Virus record (IMG/VR): IMGVR_UViG_638341084_000025
Reading direction: 5' to 3' (one strand)
DNA from: a virus
Lineage: Duplodnaviria; Heunggongvirae; Uroviricota; Caudoviricetes
DNA: 24,021 nucleotides
Shown here: positions 2,940 through 11,459 of the stretch, one piece after another
Layout: every line of letters starts with the position of its first letter
Numbering within the stretch: the stretch's first letter is position 1
The notes under the pieces: model-generated
What the model was told of the DNA's origin: nothing
The model's input: only the letters and a program-made list of their open reading frames with translations
Database searches by the model: none
Made by a program: the position numbers and the translations under genes

Positions 2940-3182
2940 ATGGGCAAAGAATATAAAACTCTCATTAACAAAGCACTTGAGCGTTTTTATTTTCGCTTAA
3001 GTGCATCAGGCGCTCATGCTGAACGTGCGGCCCGTGACTCATTGACCAGAGCAATCCGAAGTCTGTATGACGTGGCTTTTTACGCTGATGATCTGGATGC
3101 ACTTAACGAACTTTCCGAGCTGATCTGTGCCGCAGAATGCGGGGAACATATTGAACCGTATAAGCTGGGGAATATCGCATGA
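2940..3182 (+). CDS. Hypothetical early-region protein (80 aa)
   Basis: ATG 2940 (GTG 2937 alternative), AAGGG upstream; helical-looking protein with a short Cys/His stretch (LICAAECGEH). Confidence 0.5.
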   Translation: MGKEYKTLINKALERFYFRLSASGAHAERAARDSLTRAIRSLYDVAFYADDLDALNELSELICAAECGEHIEPYKLGNIA

Positions 3183-3292
3183 GTATATTTATCTCATGGC
3201 TTGTTCTGATTATTTCGGTGGCCTGCGCTATTGGGATTATGCGAATTATTCATTCAATAAAAAAGATTGAACGCTTTTTCACTGGCGAATAA
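3179..3292 (+). CDS. Small hydrophobic peptide (37 aa), single TM; below ORF-track cutoff
   Basis: ATG 3179-3181 overlaps the upstream stop TGA 3180-3182 (ATGA coupling); translation MSIFISWLVLIISVACAIGIMRIIHSIKKIERFFTGE is a hydrophobic helix followed by a basic tail. Locally AT-rich. Confidence 0.3.
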   Translation: MSIFISWLVLIISVACAIGIMRIIHSIKKIERFFTGE

Positions 3293-3378
3293 CAGAGCAA
3301 ATAAAACCACAGATTAAATAAGAAAATGTAAAAACAATCCGCATTCGCGGAGGTATTCGCACACGCCAAGGAGGCGTA

Positions 3379-5117: not shown

Positions 5118-7940
5118 ATGACGGCAGAGTATATCAGGGACTGGCAACAACCGCGCCACGCAGTGGGGCGTGAAGGAACGGAGATCCCCGCTCCTGAATC
5201 CGCGCTTTCCTCCTGGCTGGATGCCTACCGGGTAGAGAACGAACGCCGCCAGGAAATGGCTGATGCGGCGTTCTCCGCCACGCCGCTGGGCAACCTGATT
5301 AATAAAAGCCTGGACGCACAGGAAAAACAGGACAAAACCATCACACTGGCAGGAGACGCCAGAAAACAGGCACGTGGCGCGGTGGATGAAGCCATGGCCT
5401 CACTGCGCCTGCTGCCGTCCTATCTGCGCGATCCGCTTATTCGCCACCTCTCCTTCCTGCGCAAAAAACAGGAAGCCGATCGCCGGAAAGGCAAAAAGAG
5501 CTGGCAGGCTGAACGCTACGCGTGCGGAACCCTGCGCAAAATATTCGAACGTCTGGACCGCACCGACCACCGCTGGCTGACACCGGGTTATCGCTCCCTT
5601 GCCGGACGCGAACGCCTGGATGATTTGCTTTACCTGCCGCAGCTCAACAAACACCAGATACAGACGCTGGCCACCATGACGGCGGCGATGTTCAGCAGCA
5701 CCTTCGAAAAACTCTGCGATGGCTTTGGCGCGACTGATGGCGAGCTGACCATGGATGTAACGCTGAAGGCTTATCAGATGCTGGCCCGCATGGCGTTACA
5801 CCTGCACGCCATGCCTCCACATTATGACGCACTGACAACAGACAAAGACCGGAGGAACGAACCGGACACGGAGCTGCTGCCGGGCGCAATCCTTCGCCTG
5901 ACCTGTGCGGAATGGTGGAAACGCAAACTGTGGCTGTTACGTTGTGAGTGGCGGGAAGAACAACTCCGCGCCGCCTGTCTGGTTTCCAGAAAAACATCCC
6001 CCTATCTGAGCCAGGACGCGTTAAGCGAGTTTCGCGCACAGCGCGAGAAAACGCGCGATTTCCTGAAAAGTTTCATGCTGGAAAATGAAGACGGGTTCAC
6101 GATTGATCTCGAGACGGTGTATTACGCGGGAGTAAGTAACCCGGTTCACCGTAAGGCAGAAATGATGGCCACCATGAAGGGACTGGAACTTCTGGCCGAA
6201 GCCCGTGGCGACAGAGCGGTGTTTCTGACCGTCACCTGCCCGTCAAAATACCACGCAACAACGGAGAACGGTCATCCGAACCCCAAATGGAACGGGGCCA
6301 CCATGCGCGACTCCAGCGATTACCTGGTTAACACGTTTTTTGCGGCGGTCCGCAAAAAACTGAACCGCGACGGCCTGCGCTGGTATGGCATCCGCACGGT
6401 GGAGCCTCACCATGACGGCACTGTGCACTGGCATATGATGGTCTTTGCACATCCGGACGAGATTGAAACCATCGTGTCCCACGTCTGCGATATTGCCATT
6501 CAGGAGGACCGCCACGAGCTGGGCGATGACATAACTCCGCGTTTTAAGGCGGAGTATGTCGACGGCTCAAAAGGCACACCAACCAGCTACATCGCCACCT
6601 ACATCGGAAAGAACCTGGACAGCCGCGCCGTGGATGGCATCGACCCGAAAACGGGCAAGCCACGCGTTGACCACGAAACAGGTAAATCAATGGCCGAGAG
6701 CGTGGAGCGCGCCATCGGCTGGGCGCGCCTTCACCGGGTCCGTCAGTTCCAGTTCTTTGGCATCCCCTCCCGTCAGGTGTGGCGTGAACTGCGCCGCCTT
6801 GCCAGCCAGATGGCACGCAATCCGGAAGGCCCGCAACGGCTGAAAGATGATGCAATGGATGCGGTACTCGCTGCCGCCGATGCCGGGTGTTTTGCCACCT
6901 ACATTGAAAAACAGGGTGGCGTGCTTGTTCCACGCAAGGACTACCTGATTCGCACCGCCTACGACCTCGCAGATGAGCTGAACGATTACGGCGAACAGAG
7001 CGTACAGATTTACGGGATCTGGTCACCACTCATCGGGGAATCCTCCCGTGTGTGCACGCATCCGGATAACTGGAAGCTGGTAAGACGTAAACCAGAACCG
7101 GAAGACAACGCCCACGAAAATGGTTTTGACCTTCAGGGCGGCCCTGCCGCCCCTTGGACTCGTGGCAATAACTGTCCCCGTGTACAGGAAACAGGCAACA
7201 ACGGGACAGAACAGCCGGAAGAACGGCCAGCACCGTGGCCGCAGCTTCCTGACGGCGTTGAAGTAAATGAATGGATGCGCTCACTGAAACGGCACGAACG
7301 CCGGGCGCTGATGCGTTCGCTTCGTGACAAACAGGCAAAAAACAGCAGCGATGAAATGCAGAACTGGACACAGAGCCGCAAACAGCAGCGGCCTTTGCCT
7401 GATAACCACGAGTTACTCGCTAAAGAATGGCGGGAGTCTGCTGAATCTCTCGGCCTGCATATCGGTGAACAACAGATGCAGCACCTGTTACGGGGCGGCA
7501 GTCTGTACGTTGACGGCAGCATCATTGCACCGCAGGGATTTGAAATTGTACGCAAACCGGATACCCGCCCGGACAGCCGAATCACGCAGCTCTGGCAGCG
7601 TCTGAGCCGTAATCATGGCGTAAGCAGCACGGAGATCCGCCATAACCCGGTCGCCAGCTATCTGGCACAGCTGGGGGCATCAGACCCTGAAGCCGCCGCA
7701 CGCCTGGCATCCACACTTCAGCAGGACCAGAACACCATGAAAACACCCGTTACCGTGCTTTCTGACATGCTGCGCGCCATCCGCGACGCAGAGCACGCAC
7801 AGAGAATCAGTGAAACCACTGAACGCGCCAGCCGCAAAGCAGACCTGCTGCGGGGTGGCCTGACCAGTGGAAACAAAAAACAGACAGAAACGGGACTCAC
7901 GAATCCCGTAAATGAGCAAAAAACGCGCAGCGATATATGA
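5118..7940 (+). CDS. A: Replication initiation endonuclease, P2 gpA family (HUH rolling-circle initiator)
   Basis: 940 aa; HUH-type motif VHWHMMVF and paired active-site tyrosines YIATYIGK as in P2 A; position after the early genes. The C-terminal ~300 aa is low-complexity and appears to extend beyond P2 A (761 aa from memory). Confidence 0.85.
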   Translation: MTAEYIRDWQQPRHAVGREGTEIPAPESALSSWLDAYRVENERRQEMADAAFSATPLGNLINKSLDAQEKQDKTITLAGDARKQARGAVDEAMASLRLLPSYLRDPLIRHLSFLRKKQEADRRKGKKSWQAERYACGTLRKIFERLDRTDHRWLTPGYRSLAGRERLDDLLYLPQLNKHQIQTLATMTAAMFSSTFEKLCDGFGATDGELTMDVTLKAYQMLARMALHLHAMPPHYDALTTDKDRRNEPDTELLPGAILRLTCAEWWKRKLWLLRCEWREEQLRAACLVSRKTSPYLSQDALSEFRAQREKTRDFLKSFMLENEDGFTIDLETVYYAGVSNPVHRKAEMMATMKGLELLAEARGDRAVFLTVTCPSKYHATTENGHPNPKWNGATMRDSSDYLVNTFFAAVRKKLNRDGLRWYGIRTVEPHHDGTVHWHMMVFAHPDEIETIVSHVCDIAIQEDRHELGDDITPRFKAEYVDGSKGTPTSYIATYIGKNLDSRAVDGIDPKTGKPRVDHETGKSMAESVERAIGWARLHRVRQFQFFGIPSRQVWRELRRLASQMARNPEGPQRLKDDAMDAVLAAADAGCFATYIEKQGGVLVPRKDYLIRTAYDLADELNDYGEQSVQIYGIWSPLIGESSRVCTHPDNWKLVRRKPEPEDNAHENGFDLQGGPAAPWTRGNNCPRVQETGNNGTEQPEERPAPWPQLPDGVEVNEWMRSLKRHERRALMRSLRDKQAKNSSDEMQNWTQSRKQQRPLPDNHELLAKEWRESAESLGLHIGEQQMQHLLRGGSLYVDGSIIAPQGFEIVRKPDTRPDSRITQLWQRLSRNHGVSSTEIRHNPVASYLAQLGASDPEAAARLASTLQQDQNTMKTPVTVLSDMLRAIRDAEHAQRISETTERASRKADLLRGGLTSGNKKQTETGLTNPVNEQKTRSDI

Positions 7941-7982
7941 AGCGCGCACAAAACAGGCAAAAACGGGATTTCAGAATCCCGT
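7890..7982. promoter_or_regulatory. Two near-identical palindromes, candidate parC centromere/operator
   Basis: ACGGGACTCACGAATCCCGT (7890-7909, inside the A 3' end) and ACGGGATTTCAGAATCCCGT (7963-7982), centres ~73 bp apart, just upstream of the parM RBS AAGGAAAA. Confidence 0.35.
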
Positions 7983-8016
7983 AAACGATTAATTAATCAA
8001 CATAAGGAAAACCGAC

Positions 8017-8976
8017 ATGAAAATTTACATCGACGACGGCTCCACCAACATCAAGCTGGCATGGACTGAGAACGGCGAACGCCGCAACGCCATCAGCCCG
8101 AACAGCTTCAAGTCGGAATGGTCTGCGCCGTTCGGTGGCTCGCAGCCTGCTAACTACATGCTTGATGGCGTGCGCTATGGTTTTGATCCGGTCAGCGATC
8201 GCTTTGTCCAGACGACCGACACGCAATACCAGTACAGCGATGTGAATGTCATTGCCATTCATCACGCGCTGGTCAAATCAGACATCACGCCACAGGAAGT
8301 GGATGTGGTTGTTACCCTGCCACTGAGCGAATATTTCGACACAAACGCACAGCCGGACATGGCCAACATCAACCGCAAAAAAGCGAACGTCATGCGCCCG
8401 GTGGAGTACCAGAACGGCGAAGCATTCACTATCCGTAACGTACGGGTTATGCCTGAATCCATTCCGGCTGGCTTTAAAGCACTGGCTGACATGAGTCCGT
8501 TTGAATCCCTGCTGATTGTGGATTTGGGCGGAACCACGCTGGATGTGGCAAAGGTTCAGGGGCAACTGGCAGGTATCAGCCAGGTGTTTTGCGATCCACA
8601 CGTAGGCGTTTCTCTTATGGCCGATGCCGTACTGTCGGTGATGGCCACTAACGGTATGCGCACCAGTCACCACATCGCCAATACCATTATCGAACATCGC
8701 CATAATGAAGCCTGGCTGCGCCAGCACATCCACAATGACGCGCATTACGCCAGCCTGATGGCGGTTATTCGTGAAAAGGAAGAAACACTGAAACAACGCG
8801 TGATCCGCGCGCTGGCGGTTTTTTCGGGTTACGGGCGGGTGATGGTTGTCGGTGGCGGGGCGGAGATTGTGGCACCCGCTATCCGCGAAGCCTGCGGAGT
8901 TAATGCGACTTTCATCGCGGACGGGGTGCCACANTTTGCTCTGGTTAATGGGCTGTACGCAATGGACAAGGAGTAA
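8017..8976 (+). CDS. parM: Actin-like segregation ATPase ParM/StbA
   Basis: 319 aa; MKIYIDDGSTNIKLAW, YSDVNVIAIHHAL, VMPESIPAG, LIVDLGGTTLD and VMVVGGGAEI closely follow the remembered plasmid R1 ParM sequence. One N at 8934. Confidence 0.85.
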   Translation: MKIYIDDGSTNIKLAWTENGERRNAISPNSFKSEWSAPFGGSQPANYMLDGVRYGFDPVSDRFVQTTDTQYQYSDVNVIAIHHALVKSDITPQEVDVVVTLPLSEYFDTNAQPDMANINRKKANVMRPVEYQNGEAFTIRNVRVMPESIPAGFKALADMSPFESLLIVDLGGTTLDVAKVQGQLAGISQVFCDPHVGVSLMADAVLSVMATNGMRTSHHIANTIIEHRHNEAWLRQHIHNDAHYASLMAVIREKEETLKQRVIRALAVFSGYGRVMVVGGGAEIVAPAIREACGVNATFIADGVPXFALVNGLYAMDKE

Positions 8977-8980
8977 ACCA

Positions 8981-9292
8981 ATGACGACACCAACCAGACG
9001 GATAAGTTTCTATCTGAAGCCCGCCGCCGTCAAGAACGAAGGAGAAGCATGCGCCTGGCTGGACAGCCTTACACCAGAAGCCCGCAAAAGCGGCCAACGC
9101 GTGGCTTTTCTGGCCGGGCTGGCACTTCTGAAGACGAATCCGGCAGAGGCTTACCGACTGGCCGCATGGGCTGATGATGAGATGTTACCTGTGACACAAA
9201 TCAGCTCAAAAAAGTTTGAAGCACAGTCTGCACCAGTGGCTAAGATAACCAGCCAGATGGCTGGGAATATCCGGGCGTTATTTCCTGAGTAA
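8981..9292 (+). CDS. parR: ParR-like centromere-binding adaptor (putative)
   Basis: 103 aa immediately after parM (stop 8976, ATG 8981, RBS AAGGAG); N-terminal RISFYLKP...ACAWLDSL and FLAGLALL loosely resemble R1 ParR (RHH fold). Assigned mainly by position and size. Confidence 0.45.
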   Translation: MTTPTRRISFYLKPAAVKNEGEACAWLDSLTPEARKSGQRVAFLAGLALLKTNPAEAYRLAAWADDEMLPVTQISSKKFEAQSAPVAKITSQMAGNIRALFPE

Positions 9293-9412
9293 AAGCATCT
9301 GCGCGAAAAATGCTCACGTTTATAGAGACAGTATCATTCCATTTGGCACACTTACTTCAATAATCGATCTGTTAAACAAATAGATTGTCTATTATCTATC
9401 GATTAAAACGAT

Positions 9413-9477
9413 CAATTATCTTGACAGTAATGTGCCTTTTTGTAAGATCGTTCGCATTGTGAGCGACAAGATAATTG
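9413..9477 (+). promoter_or_regulatory. Candidate promoter (TTGACA-16 nt-TAAGAT) bracketed by a perfect 11-bp inverted repeat
   Basis: -35 TTGACA 9421-9426, -10 TAAGAT 9443-9448; CAATTATCTTG (9413-9423) and its reverse complement CAAGATAATTG (9467-9477) flank the core, as an operator would. Confidence 0.35.
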
Positions 9478-9498
9478 CGCGGCATTGTCCATGCAAAA

Positions 9499-9526
9499 CG
9501 CCCCAATAGCAGCAACTATTGGGGCG
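9499..9526 (-). terminator. Perfect 11-bp-stem hairpin; terminator-like on the minus strand
   Basis: CGCCCCAATAG (9499-9509) / CTATTGGGGCG (9516-9526), loop CAGCAA; on the minus strand it is followed by TTTT (rc of 9495-9498); no U-tract on the plus strand. Confidence 0.4.
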
Positions 9527-9554
9527 TAAAACTCGGTCGGACTCACTTAACCTG

Positions 9555-9635
9555 ATATGCGTGCCTTCCGAAGTAAATCAAAATGTGCGTCGTATATTTT
9601 ATTGCTTACACGCACCTCTGTAAAGGCACGCATAT
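9555..9635. repeat. 13-bp perfect inverted repeat enclosing an inner hairpin
   Basis: ATATGCGTGCCTT (9555-9567) and AAGGCACGCATAT (9623-9635), 55 bp apart; inner stem GTGCGT(9585-9590)/ACGCAC(9610-9615); followed on the plus strand by TTTTT, then GAGG and the GTG start of the next ORF. Confidence 0.5.
9596..9624 (-). promoter_or_regulatory. Candidate minus-strand promoter (TTTACA-17 nt-TAAAAT), convergent with the plus-strand promoter
   Basis: rc of 9619-9624 = TTTACA, 17-nt spacer, rc of 9596-9601 = TAAAAT; it would drive a ~100-nt transcript antisense to the ORF89 leader, ending at the 9499-9526 hairpin. Confidence 0.35.
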
Positions 9636-9656
9636 TTTTCCTATGAGGTAAATAAA

Positions 9657-9926
9657 GTGCGGGCTAAAACAGGTATTTGCAAGAACCCTCATCGTTATAA
9701 TCCAACATTTCTGTCTCTCCCTGAATATCAAGGACAAGAAGGTCGGCACAAATGCGCTGCCTGTGCTTTTGAGCTAGGCATAAAAGATGCGCTTGAAGGA
9801 CGCGCTATGGCTCAGAATGATTTAGTTTTAGCTAACATTCCGTTTAGCCAGGCTGGAACTGTAAGGCACAGAGATGCCTATGAAGCATATGTTCGTGGTT
9901 GGCGATTAATAAACAGCAACAATTGA
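9657..9926 (+). CDS. Small Cys/His protein (89 aa), possible zinc-binding; unknown function
   Basis: GTG start with GAGG 9 nt upstream; Cys8, His12, His32, Cys34, Cys37 arrangement; followed by a clean terminator. Last gene before cos (P2 has orf91/tin/old in this position). Confidence 0.5.
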   Translation: MRAKTGICKNPHRYNPTFLSLPEYQGQEGRHKCAACAFELGIKDALEGRAMAQNDLVLANIPFSQAGTVRHRDAYEAYVRGWRLINSNN

Positions 9927-9934
9927 TACTTTTG

Positions 9935-9958
9935 AAGCGCCGATAAGGCGCTTTTTTT
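9935..9958 (+). terminator. Rho-independent terminator
   Basis: Stem AAGCGCC(9935-9941)/GGCGCTT(9947-9953), loop GATAA, then a T-run to 9958. Confidence 0.6.
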
Positions 9959-10084
9959 GTTTGCACGATAGTGCACAAGTTTGCACAATTTTTTTGAACG
10001 ACTTTTTGTACTTCCGGCCCGCGTGGTGGCTGGATCCGTCAAGGATCCGTACGTGCACAAAAAAACGCGTTTTTTCTGCGCGCA

Positions 10085-10103
10085 GGTGACGGGGGAACAG
10101 CCC
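10085..10103. other. Candidate cos cohesive-end site
   Basis: GGTGACGGGGGAACAGCCC matches about 13 of 19 positions of the P2 cohesive end as remembered (GGCGAGGCGGGGAAAGCAC); it lies between the accessory island and Q, as in P2; a cluster of N bases at 10127-10151 is consistent with read ends or assembly trouble at cos. Confidence 0.3.
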
Positions 10104-10362
10104 GCGTTTCAGGGGGTAAATAGCATNCCCTGAACGATGTCGCAGNGANANAACAGAATGGCTGTATTTCTCACGCTGAGCGTGAAAAAGACGTGAGGGC
10201 TTTTGATTTGATGGGGTGAAAGGTAAGGCCGTCAAAATCGCACTGAGACGGCGAGAACATGCAGTCAACGCGGTGGGATTGCGTAAGAGTCTGACTGTCG
10301 ATGATGGCAATCAGCAGGAAAGCGTCGTGAAATTATCTGACTGATACAGGAGCTGGAGAGTC

Positions 10363-10385
10363 GGGGCATAAATTTTTTATGCCCC
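10363..10385. terminator. Palindromic hairpin downstream of Q (possible bidirectional terminator)
   Basis: GGGGCATAAA / TTTATGCCCC perfect 10-bp stem around a T-rich centre, 28 bp beyond the Q stop. Confidence 0.4.
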
Positions 10386-10412
10386 GGCGAAGCAGCAGAC
10401 AAGCGAAGNGCG

Positions 10413-11459
10413 TCAGGATGTGGGCTGGGTGTCTAACAGTGCGTAAGGGTTAAAGCGGATCACCTCTTCGCCAAGCCAGTCATTGATGTGCTTCATGGCC
10501 TCCATGACGGGCATCAGCTCGTTAATTGCGTAAACCCGCGCGGCCTTCTCCACATCACCAAACGCACTTTTTTCGCCCGGCATCGCCCCCATCAGTTGCG
10601 GCGGAACGCGGTGCGCAGCCAGCACATCATCACGGGATGCCGCCTTAACATTCATGAACTCATCTTTTGCGGTGATCTGCTGGAACGGCAAAATTTGCAC
10701 CCCTTCTTTGCCCCCGTTGGGCGCATGAATGAGCACGTTTTTAAATGCACCACCACCACGCGCACCCTGTAACGTTTCTTTCAGGGAGTCCATGCTTTCG
10801 CGGTTTACCTGCGCTGCACCGATGTAGATGATGCACCCGGCGTGGGATCCGTTGTCGTAGTACAGTTTTCTGAACATGTCCGCCGAATGAGAAAGGCTGG
10901 CCGAGAGTAATGCGCCAAGATATTCCGGCATGCCGTAGATTTCCTGGTTAATATCCGGATTCATCAGGTGGCACACTTTGCCAGGGCGAAACTGGAACGC
11001 GTCCTTGCCATCCTGCACATACCACCATGATTCAAGATCGCTTCCGCGTCGCATGTATTTCGCCAGGGCGTGCCGTAATTTAAGCGGTTCGCCGAGCATA
11101 TTGCTCCGAAGCTCAAGGAATGCGTTACCGAACACAAACCAGTCCAGCGCCAGCGCCGAGAAATCCTGCCGGGAAAGCAGCGGGTGCGGGATGTAGCACC
11201 CGAGCAATACATTACGCTTAAAGTAAAGCGCAGACTGATGCCAGGACGTTTGCCGGGCNGCTCTTGCCAGACNGTACCAGTCCACCGGGGTTTCATACCA
11301 CCGCCCGTTATCAGCACAGTACATATTGTCCAGCAGGTCATGCCCGGTCAGGCGATAAGGACCATCAAATGTGAATGCACTGAGCGATGATTCTTTCCTG
11401 AGCGCATCAGCGAGATCAATGCGTGAACTCATGCGCACTTTTTTATTTTTTCTGCTCAT
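10413..11459 (-). CDS. Q: Portal protein (P2 gpQ)
   Basis: 348 aa minus-strand ORF; N-terminus MSRKNKKVRMSSRIDLADAL and size fit P2 Q; start codon overlaps the P stop. Contains N bases (X in translation). Confidence 0.9.
   Translation of the reverse strand: MSRKNKKVRMSSRIDLADALRKESSLSAFTFDGPYRLTGHDLLDNMYCADNGRWYETPVDWYXLARXARQTSWHQSALYFKRNVLLGCYIPHPLLSRQDFSALALDWFVFGNAFLELRSNMLGEPLKLRHALAKYMRRGSDLESWWYVQDGKDAFQFRPGKVCHLMNPDINQEIYGMPEYLGALLSASLSHSADMFRKLYYDNGSHAGCIIYIGAAQVNRESMDSLKETLQGARGGGAFKNVLIHAPNGGKEGVQILPFQQITAKDEFMNVKAASRDDVLAAHRVPPQLMGAMPGEKSAFGDVEKAARVYAINELMPVMEAMKHINDWLGEEVIRFNPYALLDTQPTS

Follow-up and report, generated by a model that had tools for sequence, protein, structure and literature searches.

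The centromeres (parC) of type II (ParMRC) partition cassettes are known from textbooks as arrays of direct iterons that wrap a ring of the adaptor protein ParR. The ParR superhelix of pSK41 has 12 dimers per turn, and the parC of pCW3 consists of four tandem direct iterons of 17 bp. Here we describe two palindromes upstream of a parM-parR cassette in a stretch of 24,021 nucleotides (IMG/VR record IMGVR_UViG_638341084_000025), which is referred to below as the window. The window is a P88-like prophage of the P2 type (Peduoviridae, Xuanwuvirus) and, judged from the DNA sequence and its conservation, the two palindromes are probably binding sites for ParR that together form the parC of the cassette. 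A literature search turned up no study of ParMRC in P88-like phages or in Xuanwuvirus, nor of the role of the cassette there.

In type II systems parC lies directly upstream of parM-parR (PMC5016525). That of plasmid R1 comprises ten 11-bp direct iterons, split five and five by the promoter, and acts both as centromere and as operator (PMC5016525). The parC of pSK41 contains four contiguous 20-bp tandem direct repeats with 10-bp sub-repeats, each 20-bp repeat being bound by a ParR dimer of dimers (PMC5016525). For the ParR of pB171, binding to just two repeats of 10 bp, located upstream of parM, has been reported; according to the same paper, from 2022, every ParR characterised by then binds sequences in direct repeat (PMC9426499). 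A palindromic parC has been described for the chromosomal cParCMR of Clostridium botulinum Bf: three palindromic repeats, which are shifted by its ParR in electrophoretic mobility shift assays and are placed after parR in the figure legend and upstream in the text (PMC12270681). Among partition systems of type Ib, the omega protein of pSM19035, a ribbon-helix-helix (RHH) protein, binds its heptads equally well in direct and in inverted orientation and is also a repressor (PMC5016525).

Two palindromes precede the parM-parR cassette

A first-pass annotation had reported two near-identical palindromes about seven helical turns apart, and the sequence confirmed both their coordinates and their spacing. 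Palindrome 1, the proposed distal ParR site, occupies positions 7890-7909 (ACGGGACTCACGAATCCCGT, that is ACGGGA-CTCACGAA-TCCCGT). Palindrome 2, the proposed proximal ParR site and candidate operator, occupies positions 7963-7982 (ACGGGATTTCAGAATCCCGT, that is ACGGGAT-TTCAGA-ATCCCGT), so that the two are 73 bp (~7 turns) apart from start to start. A repeat search placed each palindrome at the centre of a 42-nt direct-repeat unit on the plus strand (7874-7915 and 7947-7988); the units are 81% identical and offset by 73 bp. Comparison with orthologous loci reduced the conserved core to GGG-N10-CCC (7892-7907 and 7965-7980), which is shorter than the 20 bp noted at first and starts 125 nt (distal, site 1) and 52 nt (proximal, site 2) ahead of the ATG of parM. 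Between the cores lies an A-rich spacer of 57 bp (7908-7964), the length of which is kept in four lineages (72-73 bp from core start to core start) while its sequence is not.

The palindromes stand out clearly from the rest of the window. The exact pattern ACGGGA-N8-TCCCGT occurs nowhere else in it. With up to two mismatches it gave four matches against 0.68 expected, a number reached by none of 100 shuffles, and a position-weight matrix built from eight orthologous sites scored the palindromes at 28.6 and 26.1 and the next unrelated match at 10.9. The matrix and a half-site search revealed no additional sites in the window, nor any further half-sites within 7500-8300. The short core GGG-N10-CCC occurs four times in the 24 kb.

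The gene following the palindromes, parM (8017-8976, plus strand), encodes an actin-like partition ATPase of 319 amino acids. It matched the Pfam families StbA_N (E = 9.8e-81) and ParM C-terminal domain (E = 6e-67) and, over its full length, the ParM of R1 (PDB 1MWK, E = 3.6e-91). Its Shine-Dalgarno sequence AAGGA (8003-8007, plus strand) is conserved in the four-way alignment described below. The ratio of nonsynonymous to synonymous substitution rates (dN/dS) was 0.05-0.2 against four relatives; by this measure parM is under purifying selection and the parMR module is maintained. Directly after it, parR (8981-9292, plus strand) encodes a ParR/StbB-family adaptor of 103 amino acids (PF10784, E = 9.8e-24, 83.4 bits against a cut-off of 25) with the N-terminal strand TRRISFYLKP and the C-terminal tail NIRALFPE. 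Used as a single sequence it matched nothing in the PDB, and a family profile including it was needed to reach the pB171 ParR structure (2JD3, E = 2.6e-18). An AlphaFold2 monomer model from a shallow alignment had a mean predicted local distance difference test score (pLDDT) of 52.5, too low to confirm the RHH fold. We are thus dealing with an intact R1-type ParM/ParR cassette under purifying selection inside an integrating P2-like prophage.

Some related prophages (L216, L218 and L220; parR at 3001-3315) carry mosaic parR genes. Their parM is ~97% identical and the first ~16 residues and the RHH core of ParR are kept. The remainder is swapped, leaving these variants only 53-57% identical overall, yet all of them end in N-I-x-x-x-F-P. 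From this pattern it seems that recombination has breakpoints within parR, where a variable cargo region begins. By analogy with R1, the N-I-x-x-x-F-P tail is taken to be the ParM-binding tail.

Conservation in distant prophages

Since the E. coli prophages of this group are 95-99% identical overall, conservation within that set proves little, and deeper relatives were therefore sought. The protein database held only two lineages with ParM identities of 57-79%, namely prophages of Hafnia (61%) and Plesiomonas (62%), and scans of viral contigs with the ParM of these two added almost no further members of the TRR clade. As a consequence the deep comparison is limited to three lineages. The Hafnia and Plesiomonas ParR proteins are 33-37% identical to that of the window. 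Both prophages are P2-like and show the gene order gpA, parM, parR, followed by ogr, portal and terminase genes on the opposite strand.

Copies of GGG-N10-CCC were counted within 400 nt upstream of parM, and every lineage had two. They are 73 bp apart in the window and in a Salmonella prophage (L084), with the proximal copy 52 nt before the ATG in both; the corresponding values are 73 bp and 55 nt in Hafnia (L123) and 72 bp and 59 nt in Plesiomonas (L126). In a four-way alignment the only invariant blocks were the GGG(A) and CCC runs, an ATTAAT.AA block, the Shine-Dalgarno sequence and the ATG. All 12 core bases were identical in every pairwise comparison, while the DNA outside the sites was 33-42% identical. 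Because the flanks differ, the Hafnia and Plesiomonas matches are not recent transfers of the whole upstream segment. The eight orthologous sites gave the consensus GGGAtt-N4-AAtCCC, which is itself palindromic. A two-site layout kept in this way despite diverged surroundings argues that the palindromes are functional DNA sites of the parM-parR module, in agreement with the role suggested for them at first reading. Among 67 distinct P88-like sequences variation was found mostly in the spacer and in the outermost arm positions.

The sites go with parMR and not with gene A

Palindrome 1 does lie within the end of gene A (5118-7940, plus strand; TGA at 7938-7940), which encodes a replication endonuclease of 940 amino acids (Pfam Phage_GPA, E = 1.7e-129). 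It covers codons 925-931, and the overlap with repeat unit 1 falls within the last 16 codons. The first-pass annotation had concluded that the C-terminus of the A protein is constrained by a DNA site. The coding overlap is real, but the constraint has to be read the other way round: it is the DNA motif that is conserved, and the overlapped protein tail is lineage-specific and variable. A common variant, C7896T, changes Leu to Phe in this tail. Homology between the window gpA and other gpA proteins extends only to about residue 800, and the C-terminal extension of ~140 amino acids in P88-type gpA (~residues 800-940; 7515-7940) has no counterpart in other P2-like gpA proteins.

The reading frame overlapped by the sites differs from lineage to lineage. 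It is the lineage-specific tail of the 940-amino-acid gpA in E. coli, the last nine codons of a 789-amino-acid gpA in Plesiomonas and, in Hafnia, an open reading frame (ORF) of 167 amino acids that is not gpA and has its stop codon inside site 2. This unrelated Hafnia ORF (L123, 3453-3956) follows an 835-amino-acid gpA. A fusion with an ORF of the Hafnia kind could have explained the long A protein of the window; the two lack similarity, and the idea was rejected. In two P2-like phages that have a related gpA and no parMR (Klebsiella ST11-OXA245phi3.1, L209; Yersinia YenM_42.18, L210) the motif was absent after gene A. On these comparisons it is parMR, and not gene A, that the sites accompany.

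The same picture emerged from the distribution of the motif at large. The first-pass annotation had pointed out that a palindrome scattered through the genome would be a generic repeat element. It is not scattered: the 42-nt unit was present in 1303 of 5426 complete E. coli genomes, all of them carriers of the prophage, with a median of two and a maximum of six places per genome, in line with the prophage copy number. A dispersed element of the repetitive extragenic palindromic (REP) or enterobacterial repetitive intergenic consensus (ERIC) kind is ruled out by the ~2 copies per genome and their confinement to prophage carriers. Of 80 loci examined from an IMG/VR scan for CGGGATT-N4-AATCCCG, 57 were P88-like and included every pair spaced by 73 bp. 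The other 23 were single matches in unrelated contigs without ParM, ParR or gpA, at the level expected by chance for 14 specified bases. Paired sites were thus found exclusively in association with parMR.

Genome records of Gram-positive organisms (Vagococcus sp., L083; Streptomyces morookaense, L111; metagenome-assembled genomes of Clostridiales and Lachnospiraceae, L112 and L117) include contigs that are 97% identical to the E. coli prophage or that have a parMRC like that of R1 or pB171. The most likely explanation is that enterobacterial DNA contaminated these assemblies or was mis-binned in them.

The repeat type follows the ParR N-terminal strand

The upstream repeats and the N-terminal strand of ParR were compared across ~45 parMR loci. 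ParR proteins with the strand TRR[IV]SFYL[KN]P go with two copies of GGG-N10-CCC. The strand NRKISFYLKP, found in Serratia and Enterobacter prophages, goes with a long inverted repeat, GGGAACGAwATAGAAAAAT-N28-ATTTTTCTGTTTCGTTCCC; RRKI.FY[IL]NP with 11-bp TTCTC direct iterons around a promoter; RRKLTYYVHP with TCTCAnnnTGAGA palindromes around a promoter; and KRRTIAFKLNP, the strand of R1, with AAACCC iterons. In other words the repeat type tracks the ParR strand across clades, as it should if ParR binds the repeats, although a correlation of this kind is no independent test.

Two of these groups deserve a closer description. In the NRKISFYLKP sister clade (L085, 3860-4000; L129; L130; L131; L211, 2880-3000; L213, 1215-1338) a DNA methylase gene lies between A and parM. 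The upstream layout of this clade is a different one and is conserved: two 19-bp arms of the inverted repeat enclose ~28 bp that include a small palindrome, and CCGTTTAAACGG follows. The clade has the half-site AAAAACGGGA in common with the window. The Erwinia, Mixta and Pantoea loci (L087, L090, L092 and L096; 250 nt upstream of parM) have a strong promoter, TTGACC..N..TAAAGT, with three to four TCTCAnnnTGAGA palindromes around it, and their RRKLTYYVHP strand resembles that of pB171 ParR. They look like another palindromic type of parC. Inverted half-sites therefore occur elsewhere in the ParR family, and the palindromic design is unusual, not unique.

A possible mechanism

How might two palindromes serve as a centromere? 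Each palindrome of 16-20 bp can be read as two inverted half-sites, GGGATT and AATCCC, with centres 10 bp or one helical turn apart. This geometry would fit two RHH dimers of ParR, a dimer of dimers, on one face of the DNA, and ParR is likely to be the protein that binds here. The distance of 72-73 bp, about seven turns, would put both sites on the same face of the helix. As the spacing is conserved though the spacer sequence is not, the two sites face the same way, which suggests contact between the ParR assemblies. Two such assemblies could touch across the 57-bp A-rich spacer if this were bent or looped, and the C-terminal ParR tails (..NIRALFPE) would then be presented to the ends of ParM filaments.

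The palindromes are probably also an operator for parMR. A weak promoter-like element lies 20-50 nt before parM and has its -35 position within the proximal site, so that the same binding could repress parMR, and autoregulation of parMR by ParR through the proximal site is plausible on the arrangement of these elements. The candidate -10 element belongs to an A/T block, ATTAAT(TAAT)CAA (7988-8000, plus strand), which is conserved in Hafnia and Plesiomonas. Together with a -35-like hexamer inside site 2 it forms the match TTCAGA-N16-ATTAAT (8/12), which lies below the scan threshold. Another promoter-like match, TGAGCA-N16-TATATG (7/12), between the sites, was rejected because it is destroyed in Salmonella.

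Several points weigh against this interpretation. A scan with the sigma-70 consensus found no promoter above threshold near parM. The geometry of the A/T block is the same in Hafnia and Plesiomonas, but the -35 hexamers there are poor and not conserved. The case for an operator is accordingly weak, and parMR may instead be read through from gene A. As to the centromere, the link with ParR is drawn from position, conservation and correlation, and the correlation between repeat type and ParR strand is also phylogenetic, with three deep lineages only. The ParR of the window is short (103 amino acids) and its middle region is diverged. Two sites, with about four predicted ParR dimers, are far below the ten iterons of R1 or the 12 dimers per turn of pSK41, and inspection of the spacer found no degenerate half-sites at a phasing of 10.5 bp. 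Site 2 has CCC>CCT (position 7980) in 14 of the 67 distinct P88-like sequences, and one of the 67 is without both cores, so the site is not strictly kept. Moreover, integration into the chromosome in nearly all genomes leaves a centromere without obvious cargo.

The recurrent CCC>CCT change in site 2 is combined with more than one spacer sequence. Tolerated degeneracy and recombination are two possible causes; a third is that the proximal site is decaying in some of the prophages.

Other explanations for the palindromes

The alternative that shares most with a ParR-bound parC is that the sites are ParR operators only, autoregulating parMR in an integrating phage that has no centromere function or has lost it. 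There are just two sites, the proximal one overlies the -35 of the sole promoter-like element, and 1541 of the 1543 places of the prophage are on the chromosome, a location that offers a centromere no obvious use. Against this, ParM is full-length, R1-like and under purifying selection, and N-I-x-x-x-F-P is invariant even where the rest of the C-terminal half of ParR has been swapped. If ParR were purely a repressor, ParM and a ParM-binding tail would be superfluous, the latter function being assigned to N-I-x-x-x-F-P by analogy with R1. Conservation extends to the distal site too, although this lies inside a gene and 125 nt from the ATG. A purely regulatory role therefore seems unlikely to us.

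It is less likely still that the palindromes act as RNA or transcriptional elements, either as intrinsic terminators on the minus strand that keep antisense transcripts from the cargo region out of gene A, or as stabilisers or processing sites of the plus-strand mRNA. In E. coli both sites do look like terminators on the minus strand, with 8-bp stems and T-rich tails and a minimum free energy of -10.2 kcal/mol (-8.7 to -10.7 on the plus strand), and the commonest arm polymorphisms of site 2, A7963G and C7980T, preserve G.U pairing in plus-strand RNA. When the eight orthologous sites were folded on both strands, however, those of Hafnia and Plesiomonas had only 3-4 bp of complementarity, 10-nt loops, no T-run on either strand and minimum free energies of about -4.5 for most (-4.2 to -8.4 overall). 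Neither hairpin is followed by a plus-strand U-tract in E. coli, and an Rfam search of 7600-8200 found no RNA family. A hairpin or terminator was accordingly rejected as the conserved function, since stable stems are present only in the E. coli/Salmonella lineage. GGG and CCC are conserved at a fixed spacing, and so is the phase between the two sites; these features indicate binding of a protein to DNA, not a stem.

Might the protein be one other than ParR? The gpA replication initiator would use the palindromes as an origin or auxiliary site; a phage regulator (CI, Cox/Apl or Ogr) or a host factor are further candidates. The origins of P2 and 186 lie inside gene A, as does site 1, and hairpin-forming palindromes are common at rolling-circle origins. 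The sites, however, fall in or after the gpA extension (beyond ~residue 800) that has no homologue in other gpA proteins, the Hafnia sites overlap a different upstream ORF, and the motif is missing from both of the examined P2-like phages that have a related gpA and lack parMR. A P2-type origin with a gpA nick site is disfavoured on the same sequence comparisons. No further copy occurs near the immunity or late regions of the window, and the motif is unlike the consensus of Ogr (TGT-N12-ACA) or of integration host factor. We regard a binder other than ParR as very improbable. The lowest probability, bordering on negligible, falls to a non-functional local duplication of 42 nt that is kept only by the recent kinship of the prophages. 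The near-identity of the E. coli prophages and the core mutations in some copies are compatible with such a duplication, but core, copy number, spacing and position are all kept in Hafnia and Plesiomonas, where the surroundings are only 33-42% identical.

We therefore return to the two palindromes as ParR-bound parC. A further step, that the prophage carries a working miniature centromere, built of two palindromic ParR sites and an R1-type ParM motor, in a quarter of complete E. coli genomes, appears rather doubtful. If active, it may segregate excised or freshly injected phage circles, allowing a transient plasmid-like stage or the positioning of replicating genomes in a phage regarded as strictly integrative; alternatively, the prophage locus might be where ParM filaments act on the chromosome of the host. 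Two looped sites with about four ParR dimers would then suffice to capture a ParM filament, without the ring of 10-12 dimers of R1 and pSK41. A conserved two-site palindromic parC with a motor closely related to that of R1 would be a natural substrate of minimal size with which to find out how many ParR dimers hold the end of a ParM filament. It would also give a defined DNA handle on the role of plasmid-type partition in a temperate phage that integrates. Should the sites be operators only, the cassette would be an ordinary autoregulated operon.

Prophage context and cargo region

The prophage was found in 1372 of the 5426 complete E. coli genomes (~25%). Over 7500-9400 the window is 95-97% identical to phages P88, 520873 and 503458 and to Citrobacter phage phiSM. 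On the 3' side of parR lies a short variable cargo region, and beyond it the portal gene, which is encoded on the other strand. The DNA between parR and portal (9292-10413) differs among otherwise near-identical phages, and in many matches query coverage ends at 1678-1793 of 1901. The window has an ORF of 89 amino acids here (9657-9926), and the three prophages with mosaic parR carry different genes in this stretch. The stretch appears to be a cargo hot-spot of the P88-like phage group.

The window contains ambiguous bases: an N at 8935 in parM gives an X at ~residue 307, and several X residues occur in the portal ORF and in the minus-strand ORF 9906-10310 (ambiguous positions within 9906-11459). 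It is therefore derived from an imperfect assembly.

Comparison with known partition systems

R1 is the natural point of departure. As in R1, the sites lie upstream of parM-parR, in two blocks on either side of the operon start or next to it, ParM is homologous and ParR belongs to the same family, PF10784. The design is nevertheless different, as the first-pass annotation had anticipated. R1 parC is made of ten 11-bp direct iterons (PMC5016525), and in R1-like loci (L110-L112) AAACCC repeats flank a strong promoter with TTGACA. The window has two inverted-repeat units, the first of them inside a coding region, and no clear promoter between or after them.

With pSK41 the resemblance is one of scale: the length of the repeat unit and the implied stoichiometry match one palindrome of the window. 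The contiguous repeats of pSK41, however, build a continuous superhelix, whereas the window has two separated palindromic units. The low number of sites has a precedent in par1 of pB171, whose ParR is the closest solved structure (2JD3). The pB171 repeats are described as direct, and its ParR strand reads RKKYTLYLHP as compared with TRRISFYLKP in the window.

Palindromic repeats bring other relatives into view. The Erwinia, Mixta and Pantoea loci belong to enterobacterial relatives of the ParR and likewise have palindromic, not direct, upstream repeats (TCTCAnnnTGAGA); they differ in having three to four palindromes, in the strong TTGACC...TAAAGT promoter that these flank, in the half-site TCTCA and in the ParR strand RRKLTYYVHP. 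The cParCMR of C. botulinum resembles the window in its palindromic parC and in being a chromosome-borne ParMR cassette, but it comes from an unrelated Firmicute lineage and no prophage context has been described for it. A mechanistic precedent for an RHH protein that reads inverted half-sites is provided by omega and its parS, although that system is of the Walker ATPase partition type and uses contiguous 7-bp heptads in many copies.

The locus thus has the ParM gene, the adjoining ParR gene and the repeated sites upstream of parM that characterise a type II cassette. It departs from the type in that the sites are two separate, internally palindromic units instead of tandem direct iterons. 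Because these units are non-contiguous and are accompanied by no further half-sites, they would represent a variant of parC and not a classical one. From its sequence and its relatives, the best reading of the locus is a two-site palindromic parC, probably bound by ParR, in a type II cassette that lacks the tandem direct-iteron architecture.

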